Below, piece after piece: positions 27,995 to 42,021 of a DNA stretch of 48,083 bases. Position numbers and translations under genes: made by a program. Position 1 is the stretch's first letter; every line of letters begins with the position of its first letter. The notes below the pieces were generated by a model. It ran no database searches and had not been told where the DNA came from. It saw only the letters and a program-made list of their open reading frames with translations. Source of the stretch: Candidatus Levyibacteriota bacterium (lineage in GTDB: Bacteria > Patescibacteriota > Microgenomatia > Levybacterales > UBA12049); assembly GCA_016217835.1 (NCBI GenBank), contig JACRFQ010000014.1, forward strand, positions 1 through 48,083, read 5' to 3'.

Positions 27995-28621
27995 ATGGCC
28001 GGAGTACTATACAAAAAAGAAAGAGAAGTTTTGGAATTTTTAGCGCAATTTCAAAAACAATATGGTTATTCACCCACATTGGCTGAAATTGCAGCCGGAA
28101 CCGGACACAGAAGCAATTCAACTGTTCATTCACTAATTAAATCGCTGGTTGAAAAGGGTTATGTTCAAAAAGTCGACGGCAATACAAGGGTATTAAAAAT
28201 TGTTGATGATAAAGTCACGCTTTCGCTTACAGGAAGTAAGCCCGCAATAGAATTACCCCTGCTTGGATTTATCGCAGCAGGGAGCCCCTTAGAGCCTCAC
28301 ACAGACCCAAATGCGTCCTTTTTCGTATCGGCATCTCTTTTGTCGGGGAAAAATACCGCTTATGTACTACAAGTTAAAGGAAATTCAATGATTGAGGATG
28401 GTATTTTAGATGGGGATTTTGTAGTTATAGAAAAAATGTCCGAAGCCGCAAACGGAGATATAGTGGTTGCAATTGTAGATGATAATTTAGCAACCCTTAA
28501 AAAGTTTTATAAAGAAAACGATAGAATTGTTTTAAAACCTGCAAATTCAGAAATGTCTCCAATTTATCCAAATCATTTAACAATTCAGGGCAAAGCTGTT
28601 GGGATCGTTAGAAAATTCTAA
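27995..28621 (+). CDS. lexA: SOS repressor LexA
   Basis: wHTH (YSPTLAEIA...LVEKGY), Ala-Gly cleavage site IAAGSP, catalytic GNSM and TLKK. Confidence 0.95.
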   Translation: MAGVLYKKEREVLEFLAQFQKQYGYSPTLAEIAAGTGHRSNSTVHSLIKSLVEKGYVQKVDGNTRVLKIVDDKVTLSLTGSKPAIELPLLGFIAAGSPLEPHTDPNASFFVSASLLSGKNTAYVLQVKGNSMIEDGILDGDFVVIEKMSEAANGDIVVAIVDDNLATLKKFYKENDRIVLKPANSEMSPIYPNHLTIQGKAVGIVRKF

Positions 28622-39720: not shown

Positions 39721-40680
39721 ATGTTAATCGATGAAGCAAAAATTATTGTTAAAGCGGGTAAAGGCGGTAATGGCGCGTCGAGCTTTAAAAGAAATGCGCA
39801 AACCGCAAAAGGCGGACCGGACGGAGGAAACGGCGGTAATGGGGGAAATGTATATTTTTGCGGCATAAATGATATCACGGCGCTTTCCGAATTTACTTAC
39901 AAAAAAAAGATATCGGCCGAAGACGGGATAAAAGGCGGAAAGCAAAACCTTTATGGCAGGAATGGAAAAGATACAGTCGTATTTTTACCGATTGGGACAT
40001 TCGTTACAGATTTAGATACGAATAAGACTTTTGAAATTTTAAATACACAGGATAAAATTTTGATTGTAAAAGGCGGAAAAGGCGGTAGGGGAAATAATGA
40101 GTTTAAATCAGCAACACAGCAAACACCTTATTACGCGGAAAAAGGGTTACCGGGGGAAGAAAAAAAACTTTTATTAGTTCTTAAACTGATTGCAGACATA
40201 GGGCTTATCGGACTTCCGAACTCAGGCAAAAGCAGTCTTTTGAGTGTTTTAACCAGGGCTCATCCAAAAATTGGAGATTATCCGTTTACTACATTGGAGC
40301 CCAATTTAGGAGTTTTGAGTAGTATTGTAATCGCAGATATTCCAGGTCTTATTGAAGGCGCATCTGACGGCAAAGGACTGGGGATTAAGTTTTTAAAACA
40401 TATCGAAAAGACAAAAGTATTAGTTCATTGCATAGATATTCAATCACAAGATTTACCAAAAGATTATGAAATTGTTAGGAAAGAGCTAATTCAATATGAT
40501 AATAAGTTAAATGAAAAAACAGAAATTATACTTTTAACAAAGTCAGATTTATTATCAAAAAAAGAAGTTAATCAAAAATTGAAAGTAGCAAAAAAATTAA
40601 ATTATAATTCTTTTACAATGTCTATTTATAATGATAAAGAACTTTCCAGCCTCACCGAATTATTAATAAACATAAAATAG
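39721..40680 (+). CDS. obgE: GTPase Obg
   Basis: GGPDGGNGG Obg fold, GLPNSGKS, YPFTT, DIPG, TKSD. Confidence 0.96.
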   Translation: MLIDEAKIIVKAGKGGNGASSFKRNAQTAKGGPDGGNGGNGGNVYFCGINDITALSEFTYKKKISAEDGIKGGKQNLYGRNGKDTVVFLPIGTFVTDLDTNKTFEILNTQDKILIVKGGKGGRGNNEFKSATQQTPYYAEKGLPGEEKKLLLVLKLIADIGLIGLPNSGKSSLLSVLTRAHPKIGDYPFTTLEPNLGVLSSIVIADIPGLIEGASDGKGLGIKFLKHIEKTKVLVHCIDIQSQDLPKDYEIVRKELIQYDNKLNEKTEIILLTKSDLLSKKEVNQKLKVAKKLNYNSFTMSIYNDKELSSLTELLINIK

Positions 40681-40684
40681 CCGC

Positions 40685-40709
40685 AAAAAAACCCCTTGCG
40701 GGGTCTTTT
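40685..40709. terminator. Bidirectional intrinsic terminator
   Basis: A-run, CCCC-TTGC-GGGG, then TCTTTT; T7 follows the hairpin on the minus strand. Confidence 0.8.
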
Positions 40710-40765
40710 CGGGGCATACTCTTGCGAGTATTTCCTGCCTTTTTGATACTTGCGTATCTGAAGGT
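40685..40765 (-). ncRNA. Candidate small RNA with three GCAA-tetraloop hairpins (unassigned family)
   Basis: Promoter TTGACA(40801-40796)-17-TAAAAT(40778-40773); hairpins GATAC-GCAA-GTATC, ATACTC-GCAA-GAGTAT, ACCCC-GCAA-GGGGT followed by a U-tract. Confidence 0.6.
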
Positions 40766-40868
40766 AAGAAGCATTTTATATTATATTTCAGCTTCTGTCA
40801 ATAGGGTAAAAATAGGTCAAAAGGAGTCAATATTGGCATATATGTACTTTAAGCACGTAACAGCATGA

Positions 40869-41138
40869 CTAATTGTAAACTTCATCATGAGTCCCTATTT
40901 TGATAAAATAAGCTTTGTCTTCGCTTAATAATTTGTATACCATTCGTATACTCATTATGATTGAAATACTCCACAAATTATTCATACTCGAATTAAGTTT
41001 ATGTGTACGTAAAGACGGATGTTTGAGATTTATGCTAAATAAATATAGTTGCTTTTGGATTCTTGAAGATAGTTTTACATTTTTTTGTTTTATCTTTTTG
41101 AGGTCTTTTACTACTTCCGGAGAAAGTTTAATATGCAT
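40869..41138 (-). CDS. RelE/YafQ-like type II toxin
   Basis: 89 aa, basic; HPSLRTHKL, WSISI---RMVY, IGTHDEVY. Confidence 0.82.
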   Translation of the reverse strand: MHIKLSPEVVKDLKKIKQKNVKLSSRIQKQLYLFSINLKHPSLRTHKLNSSMNNLWSISIIMSIRMVYKLLSEDKAYFIKIGTHDEVYN

Positions 41139-41140
41139 GA

Positions 41141-41398
41141 TTATAAATTTTTGAAAAATTCGTTAACGTTATCAATATCAATAGCTTCATCAATATGCTC
41201 CATTGCTTCTCTTGCGGCCTTTTCCGTGACAGTAGATGCTTTAAAAATAGGATATTCTTCATCTTTAACCTCGTCTATAATAAGATGTTTCACTAATTGA
41301 GTTATAGGAACACCCAGACGTTCAGCTTTAGATTTTAGTAAATCACCTAATTGTTGGGAAATGCTTACTCTGATTTGTATTTGTCCGCTATCTATCAT
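41141..41398 (-). CDS. Probable antitoxin (ribbon-helix-helix-like N-terminus)
   Basis: QIRVSIS...LKSKAERLGVPITQLVKHLI, acidic C-terminus ending NVNEFFKNL; 2 bp upstream of the toxin; AGGTGG SD. Confidence 0.72.
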   Translation of the reverse strand: MIDSGQIQIRVSISQQLGDLLKSKAERLGVPITQLVKHLIIDEVKDEEYPIFKASTVTEKAAREAMEHIDEAIDIDNVNEFFKNL

Positions 41399-41422
41399 AT
41401 TTTACCACCTTTTTACACTTAA

Positions 41423-41450
41423 ATTATACTACTTTTTGACGTTTTGTCAA
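41423..41450 (-). promoter_or_regulatory. TA operon promoter with an overlapping inverted repeat
   Basis: TTGACA(41450-41445)-16-TATAAT(41428-41423); TTGAC-N5-GTCAA at 41436-41450. Confidence 0.6.
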
Positions 41451-41526
41451 TAGATAAATCATTACGTGTTTAAAATACATATAAGCCTCAAAATTAAAAT
41501 TATGCCGCTTCAATAAGAAATGCTAA

Positions 41527-41832
41527 CTAACCGGCGTAAGGGAAAATACCTTCATGAATTGTTTGAAATGTCTTATCGGGTTTTTGAGTTATATGATAAC
41601 TAATTTCTAATTTATTACCTTGAAGAGGAATCCGTATTCTTCCTTGTTCAAATCCGCTTTTTTTACTTACTCCATAATAATCAAAAATAATTCTGCTACC
41701 CTGACCATATACGGGTACGTTTTCTTCGTTGCCATTTCTAATATTTTGAACATAAGACTCCCAAGTAGCTGATGGAGGTGGGGGAACTATATTGTCATGG
41801 ACAACTCTTTCAATTACTTCTTTAATGTTCAT
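41527..41832 (-). CDS. Hypothetical protein
   Basis: 101-aa ORF; TATAAT 6 nt before ATG; no motif recognised. Confidence 0.55.
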   Translation of the reverse strand: MNIKEVIERVVHDNIVPPPPSATWESYVQNIRNGNEENVPVYGQGSRIIFDYYGVSKKSGFEQGRIRIPLQGNKLEISYHITQKPDKTFQTIHEGIFPYAG

Positions 41833-42021
41833 CAGTTAATTATACTATAAGTTAACACGAAAACAAAATCAGGCTTAAGCACTCGAAATAAGTATTTGAA
41901 ATGTTTATAACTTTCCACCCGGGAGACGACTAGATAGAAAACAGCGACATTGGTATTCTATTAAAGAATAATAATAATTACTTAACATACTTACTCAAAA
42001 GAATGATATTATTGTTTAACT

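Follow-up and report, generated by a model that had tools for sequence, protein, structure and literature searches.

A predicted free-standing three-hairpin RNA of Levybacteria and their class, with promoter repeats found also at DNA-maintenance genes

The RNAI of ColE1 is a short stand-alone transcript of three stem-loops, the last of which is a terminator, and the protein-sponge RNAs CsrB, RsmY and RsmZ consist of a string of hairpins followed by a terminator. The nucleoid RNA naRNA4 of E. coli, which is derived from REP325, is about 77–80 nt long and has two hairpins; as reported, these two hairpins, and not the sequence, are needed with HU, and the complement of naRNA4 also worked; the RNA originates in an array of six REP units, possibly by processing of a transcript that starts upstream (PMC4550694). 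The 6S RNA (RF00013) and Ms1/CoRP are free-standing structured RNAs that bind RNA polymerase (PMC11077062), and the RNA described here would likewise act through a protein.

The gene considered here lies on the minus strand of a 48,083-nt stretch of DNA (the window) of a Candidatus Levyibacteriota bacterium, whose assembly (G000) comprises 707 kb and is 90% complete. Its letters on that strand are exactly those quoted in an earlier note made from the sequence, which had read there a promoter, three hairpins and a U tract. The predicted sigma-70-type promoter is formed by the -35 hexamer TTGACA (40796..40801, minus strand) and the -10 hexamer TAAAAT (40773..40778, minus strand), and TTGACA-17-TAAAAT as a whole (40801..40773) agrees with the consensus at 11 of 12 positions. 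The predicted 81-nt RNA (40685..40765, minus strand), to which the family models R1 and R2 apply, begins with an A 7 nt after the -10 and runs to the end of the U tract. It would fold into P1 (40738..40764; 4 + 5 bp with an internal loop and a GCAA cap), in which the 5' end is paired, P2 (40712..40735; 2 + 6 bp, GCAA cap), which follows P1 after 0–2 nt, and the intrinsic terminator hairpin P3 (40685..40710; 11 bp, GCAA cap, U7), all on the minus strand; a terminator-like hairpin is called at 40711..40684 (minus strand). On the upstream side of the -35, and abutting it, is a candidate operator or activator site of three phased ~11-bp repeat units, TTG(A/G)YMYA-like (40802..40832, minus strand). 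A 91-nt stretch of the locus folds with -40.5 kcal/mol (z = -6.9), and none of 200 shuffles was equally stable. A TTGACA-like promoter followed by three stable-tetraloop hairpins occurs at this one locus across G000, where the RNA is single-copy and, of 24 perfect GCAA hairpins with at least 5 bp in the stem, contributes three. The RNA contains one ATG and no SD-led ORF, as the note had stated. With Rfam 15 there was no match to the locus at gathering score, the only matches in the window being five tRNAs; below threshold, three chance matches (E 3–9.7) fell near the RNA, and a search of 12 homologue loci gave four tRNAs and no family for the RNA.

The RNA is similar to naRNA4 in size and in having at least two hairpins, and its structure, too, is kept over its sequence (PMC4550694). 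In contrast to naRNA4, it is present in one or two copies with its own promoter and terminator and is not REP-like, and HU binding by it is hypothetical. It is less than half as long as 6S RNA (62–92 nt versus ~150–190 nt) and has neither the long 5'/3' closing duplex nor the central bubble, and RF00013 has no match in G000. With CsrB, RsmY and RsmZ it has the hairpin string and the terminator in common, and its longer relatives have 5–7 hairpins; however, there is no GGA in its loops, each RNA has 0–2 GGA (counting the 21 copies without GGCAGGA), and CsrA was found in 0/6 carrier genomes. Unlike Y RNA, the core family has no closing 5'/3' stem, and TROVE (Ro60) was found in 0/5 genomes, three of them carriers. 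In case of SRP RNA, both RF00169 and Ffh (PF02978) are without match in G000, which is 90% complete. An own conserved promoter, an intrinsic terminator, a covarying structure and the lack of a conserved ORF are all found in the predicted gene, so that it probably belongs to the stand-alone bacterial sRNAs, with a probable tie to a DNA-maintenance regulon.

By BLASTN, copies at E <= 1e-7 were found in 10 of 60 relatives, and covariance models were then built from 11 sequences (R1) and from 41 sequences (R2). At E <= 1e-4, R2 gave 43 matches in 40 of the 151 genomes of the order (Levybacteria-type), many of which match by construction, having helped to build the model; the other 111 genomes lack the RNA at this threshold. 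Its presence is clustered by genus (for example 5/5, 3/3 and 3/3 versus 0/6 and 0/3), with related genomes that are not independent samples. A strict pattern searched in 185,579 species genomes matched 31 times, and the titles of the matched records name Levybacteria or Levyibacteriota (16), Patescibacteria (6), 'uncultured Gammaproteobacteria' (8: L086, L093, L095, L097, L098, L100, L101 and L105) and a 'bacterium' (1). Five of the eight 'Gammaproteobacteria' matches share their coordinates with order-level CPR entries, and therefore these titles look wrong. In a class sample of 142 genomes outside the order, 13 of 23 inspected matches had the promoter, the hairpins and the terminator, four of them laid out differently, two as long arrays and two as closed three-way folds. 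Outside the class, a phylum sample of 151 genomes gave seven weak matches, all of them bare terminators without promoter. A metagenome pattern returned 17 loci, namely 16 clear members and one chance match, and three exact patterns, a kind that misses divergent copies, had 0 matches in viral contigs. The obgE flanks of 21 RNA-negative genomes held no hidden copy (best E 0.35), and a promoter-to-terminator pattern, which catches only 41 of 66 known members, found 27 sites in 71 genomes, none of them a hairpin unit. A full scan of the 1.04-Mb genome G079 did not find the RNA; this negative is imperfect, since a block that includes rpsB- and recR-like genes is missing from G079, and the genes that flank the G037 RNA on one side have no match there. 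Separately, obgE, which is usually considered essential, was not found with the query used in 9 of 30 genomes of at least 95% completeness. No description of the RNA was found in literature listings and the opening parts of abstracts, and supplements may hold the family; a term search of bioRxiv 10.64898/2026.10.21.760802 found one unrelated Patescibacteriota passage. Taken together, this is in all probability a real, uncatalogued, class-restricted gene for a structured small RNA.

There are one or two copies per genome. Several genomes have two, and the two are divergent in L052 (G078), L093, L070/L077 (G065) and L069/L074 (G117); in G078 and L093 they flank a single accessory gene within 0.8–1.4 kb, and G117 has a two-hairpin 57-nt form. 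Two loci (L122:1347-1590 in G168 and L117:370-510 in G224) are promoter-to-terminator units of seven and four perfect 8–10-bp hairpins, with GCAA, GAAA, CUCG and CUUG caps, spacers of 3–6 nt such as ACCAA and no Rfam match, which are possibly a long array form of the family or a separate sponge-like RNA. In two others (L118:1501-1589 in G166 and L123:1501-1595 in G291) a three-way junction is closed by pairing of the 5' end with the strand that precedes the terminator; their promoters have strong upstream repeats, and their neighbour is the secreted-protein gene of the core family. Two copies in several genomes, together with the GTAG before P2 in subtype B (see below) and the RAYT-like genes among 50 candidates from a gene subtraction, are what a REP- or MITE-like palindrome moved by a Y1 (RAYT-like) transposase would explain. 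REP/RAYT systems are expected to show many copies with a GTAG/GGAG guide and a RAYT; in contrast, the RNA has one or two copies per genome (one in G000), its own promoter and a genus-wise distribution, GTAG is not conserved, and a Y1/RAYT-like transposase is present in 8 of 16 RNA-positive versus 9 of 16 RNA-negative genomes and so does not track the RNA. A mobile palindrome is thus a very remote explanation, and the REP family, named in the note as a possible match, hardly accounts for the locus.

Altogether 66 loci were parsed and 59 were kept as core; the seven left out are the two arrays and the two closed folds, a two-hairpin form, a 57-nt outlier and a copy cut off by the end of its contig. 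The promoter is absent from the models, yet in 57 of the 66 loci a site with at least 10 of 12 consensus bases lies upstream at constant spacing, a count somewhat favoured by picking the best site inside a narrow window, and the predicted first base is A in 61/66 (pyrimidine-purine start rule). The predicted promoter and terminator of the note are thus kept in the same places in homologues. The core copies are 62–92 nt long with three hairpins. In the alignment of 60 sequences 21 of the 22 modelled pairs change on both sides, including 8/8 in P1 and 6/6 in P2, and 95.5% of cells pair, compared with 75.7% in shuffles (0/500 reach the observed value) and 41–56% in slid controls; since relatives are compared and the structure shaped both alignments, these figures are not probabilities. 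In a smaller alignment of 32 sequences, 14 of the 22 pairs change on both sides. The terminator helix P3, with 99.6% paired, is the most conserved part. The homologues and the covariation that the note had asked for are therefore at hand, and its claim of a structured, independently transcribed RNA of no catalogued family is borne out at the level of prediction. The structure to which it had ascribed selection does covary across the family; however, the C(GCAA)G loop is not invariant, being replaced by GAAA, GUAA, UA(GCAA)UA and occasionally a non-GNRA cap, so that selection for GCAA itself is unsupported. GNRA caps are found on P1 in 57/59, on P2 in 56/59 and on P3 in 59/59 core copies, the P1/P2 junction has 0–2 nt in 57/59, and the 5' arms measure 10–12 nt in P1 (54/59), 9–11 nt in P2 (46) and 11–12 nt in P3 (53), these lengths, about one helical turn, being kept while the sequence turns over. 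Two subtypes can be told apart. Subtype A (31 copies, including the locus under study) is marked by an internal loop within P1 and by GGCAGGA where P1 and P2 meet, and subtype B (7 copies) has a perfect 11-bp P1, GTAG before P2 and GGCAGGA before P3. The competition between CCTT/AAGG and GGC/GCC extensions proposed in the note is not conserved, CCUU/AAGG being the conserved outer part of P1, and no conserved switch between helices was seen in the family, for in none of the 59 core copies can the terminator be broken for less than 7.1 kcal/mol (median 13.3).

A base-pairing sRNA, RNAI-like or trans-acting, which would open an mRNA via its loops or the GGCAGGA junction, is suggested by the short three-stem-loop layout ending in a terminator that the RNA shares with ColE1 RNAI, and by the place of GGCAGGA in the two subtypes. 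But the RNA has no open kissing loops, no 5' tail and no overlapping target or replicon, and it is chromosomal and without Rfam match. Its loops are closed 4-nt GNRA caps, and in 56/59 copies no mostly-unpaired run is longer than a 4-nt loop. Furthermore, there is no universal sequence word, GGCAGGA being present in 38/59 and absent from 21/59, no gene constantly overlaps the RNA, and G000 has no second complementary site beyond chance (best E 0.3, outside the RNA). These points make a pairing RNA rather improbable. CAGGA opens for only ~2.4 kcal/mol in 31 copies, and a small sequence-read site is on that account possible. As an arm of ~11 bp with a tetraloop is near the minimal RNase III substrate, and RNase III is found in 148/151 genomes, the RNA might also serve RNase III, or another double-strand RNA nuclease, as a decoy or as a substrate that tunes it; against this, both copies of G065 are short versions with 6-bp P1 and P2, the P1 of subtype A is interrupted by the internal loop, and the presence of the enzyme does not discriminate carriers. 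We consider such a decoy improbable.

The surroundings of the gene vary. At the locus under study the RNA converges with obgE, a GTPase gene (39721..40680, plus strand; PF01018) whose stop is at 40680, and the A-rich 5' arm of P3 likely lets this hairpin terminate the obgE mRNA too. On the other side is a RelE/StbE-type toxin gene with a small antitoxin gene and their own promoter (40869..41398, minus strand; TIGR02385 over cut-off), the toxin stop being at 40869. In the window, the toxin-antitoxin (TA) pair and a 101-aa orphan (40855-41890) separate the RNA promoter from a zinc-ribbon gene, which adjoins it in G075, G086 and G095; an 8-bp word near both ends of this segment suggests that it may be a small inserted island. 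Among the 66 loci, the neighbourhood up to 1.5 kb holds the gene of a secreted protein with no Pfam match (18 loci), obgE (13) and the gene of a zinc-ribbon protein (8), besides scattered transposases, methylases and orphans, and the TA pair (2). From these counts, the nearness of obgE, whose linkage the note had wished to see weighed against that of the TA pair, appears to be synteny in one subclade, and the suggested link with the RelE-type pair falls away. An RNA antitoxin or accessory of that pair would fit the position in the source genome, where the RNA follows the toxin on its strand at a distance of 107 nt; it is scarcely credible with the pair at 2/66 loci and with the pair having a protein antitoxin and a promoter of its own that lacks the repeats. 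The downstream gene is convergent at 36 loci, co-directional at 28 and undetermined at 2. A cis leader or attenuator of the downstream gene could apply to the 28 co-directional cases (28/64), one of which is presumably recA, but 36/64 downstream genes converge, at the locus under study as well, they belong to unrelated families, and the cost of disrupting the terminator speaks against an alternative antiterminator fold, so a leader is highly unlikely. The orientation of the downstream genes and the rarity of the TA pair together indicate that the RNA is neither a leader nor part of a TA module.

The repeats upstream of the -35 connect the RNA promoter with other genes. Upstream of the -35, TTG recurs near -29, -19 and -8, and two phased TTG are present in 31 of 51 order-level RNA promoters versus 4 of 104 TTGAC-type sites of G000, one of which is the RNA's own. 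Conservation is 0.56 bits in the proximal 10 bp and 0.30 and 0.24 in the distal units, compared with 0.18 in the -35/-10 spacer and 0.06 far upstream. A matrix trained without G000 and the genus of G037 gave the top rank to the RNA among 541 sites in G000, with nrdR in third place; among 615 sites in G037, nrdR came out on top, followed directly by the RNA. Moreover, six nrdR and lexA promoters of three genomes were in the top 1% of 466 sites, and the RNA-trained matrix placed nrdR promoters in the top 5% of 375 background sites in 18 of 20 genomes (28 nrdR genes were found and 20 upstream regions fetched). In the reverse direction, with a matrix trained on nrdR and 374 background sites, 29 of 42 RNA promoters were within the top 5%, the locus under study at 1.3%, and 13 of 42 missed the cut; the top background matches of this matrix were three nrdR, two lexA and two sugar-nucleotide genes, with one dnaA lower. 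These backgrounds are drawn from three genomes. In case of recA, 27 of 30 genomes had a pickable promoter; the proximal unit was in the top 10% in 19/27 and the full score in 13/27, carriers and non-carriers alike. The obgE control, a weak one with a pickable promoter at 3 of 21 loci, had 0/3 in the top 5%, and the promoter of the RelE-type pair is ordinary, without repeats. LexA is named by Pfam; nrdR, recA, dnaA, galU and ugd are labels that we take from our own recognition of the sequences. Across the order, the repeat is seen ahead of the -35 in nrdR, lexA and recA promoters and in those of some sugar-nucleotide genes, for example at L358-L377, L328-L357, G000:C23:7040(-) and window ~27950(+). 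On this sequence evidence the RNA is probably co-regulated with the nrdR/lexA/recA set. Because it is missing in most genomes while the repeat stays at nrdR and recA in both groups, the RNA is dispensable to the regulon; and as the repeat also precedes sugar-nucleotide genes, it may be a mark of strong promoters generally. No description of the phased repeat as a DNA-maintenance regulatory site in Microgenomates was found in the literature.

Two known boxes were compared with the repeat. It is not the DnaA box: the dnaA promoters of three genomes have a canonical DnaA box, which differs from the unit, and the unit does not cluster at dnaA. It is apparently not the LexA box either; the lexA spacers show, by eye, a separate NTTC-N7-TTTC repeat, which the RNA promoter of G000 lacks. 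That repeat in the window's lexA promoter spacer is also found in G037 and G079 and is a candidate direct-repeat LexA box, while the recA spacers have differing, lineage-specific words. G000 has two LexA paralogues (window 27995-28618, plus strand, and G000:C30:3122-3694, minus strand). As to the regulator of the repeats, a WYL protein was not found in five genomes. G000 has a single OmpR-type winged-helix domain, placed C-terminally in a 450-aa protein (G000:C4:16089-17438; L154:382-1731), whose N-terminus resembles, by eye, a degenerate ATPase, and this protein is a candidate. In addition, a TrpR-like gene (G000:C25:32383-32853, minus strand) lies between identical ~26-bp palindromic sequences directly before a repeat-bearing galU-like promoter.

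The number of repeat units also bears on an explanation at the level of DNA and transcription, in which a strong promoter with a two-way terminator insulates neighbours or titrates a shared activator and RNA polymerase, the RNA being a by-product. The RNA promoter has up to three units and nrdR and recA have fewer, as titration of an activator would have it, and insulation agrees with the convergent downstream genes, which often end 6–30 nt from the U tract, and with P3 being the most conserved part. However, insulation needs P3 only, yet all 14 modelled pairs of P1 and P2 covary and the arm lengths are kept; moreover, in 53/59 copies the strand read from the promoter has a more stable fold than the opposite one, and this strand bias and the GNRA caps point to the transcript. 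The by-product explanation is accordingly judged unlikely.

The account that we prefer is that of a free-standing ~80-nt three-hairpin RNA which serves as a shape-read protein decoy or scaffold and is made when the regulator of nrdR, lexA and recA is active, and its probability as a whole is put at about 0.45. That a protein reads the RNA through its shape is, taken by itself, slightly favoured by the modelled fold, since the first base is paired, the stable caps are interchangeable, the helix lengths outlast the sequence and there is no seed. RNA polymerase would start at the A that opens P1 and stop at P3. With the 5' end paired at once and a terminator as 3' end, exonucleases and single-strand nucleases would have no entry and the RNA could accumulate. 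Stacked on each other, P1 and P2 (~11 and 9–10 bp, 0–2 nt apart) would make up a nicked duplex with capped ends, to which P3 would add a third arm, and the overall shape would be read by a partner, likeliest a general duplex- or junction-binding protein of DNA metabolism, which the RNA would titrate or bridge while DNA is being replicated or is under stress. By analogy with naRNA4, HU is our lead guess for this partner, a doubtful one. Among complete genomes, HU is in 2/2 with the RNA and in 2/2 without it, and a search of G000, 90% complete, did not find it. If the partner is ubiquitous, as HU or RNase III would be, its presence would show nothing, and thus tracking tests neither confirm nor exclude it. 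Among other candidates, a 2H phosphoesterase does not track the RNA (11/24 RNA-positive versus 10/24 RNA-negative genomes), and the cold-shock domain has no link with it. Subtracting G079 from G000 plus G037 left 50 genes and the reverse 29, a result blurred by the gap in G079. Since no partner gene travels with the RNA, the 'undescribed system' of the earlier note is reduced to a single RNA gene and is not a multi-gene system.

A wider and rather speculative idea, which we think unlikely, is an undescribed master regulon of Microgenomates (nrdR, lexA, recA and possibly dnaA and cell-wall sugar genes) acting via the phased 11-bp repeats, whose RNA effector would be a seedless 'hairpin-bead' class of 2 to 7 capped one-turn helices that mimic duplex or branched nucleic acid, and so sequester or bridge a nucleoid or transcription protein as the episymbionts pass into or out of replication. 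The ultra-small CPR bacteria retain few regulatory RNAs in their genomes, and G000 is without recognisable 6S RNA, SRP RNA, Ffh and CsrA. Against this poverty, a clade-wide covarying RNA with a near-consensus promoter suggests a rare function that was retained or invented. As the RNA is small, easily synthesised and without a pairing seed, its partner is open to a direct pull-down search. The repeat common to the RNA, nrdR, lexA and recA would be a first handle on a DNA-maintenance regulator of Microgenomates, and through it one could test whether a non-coding RNA is linked to growth or stress in an uncultured episymbiont.
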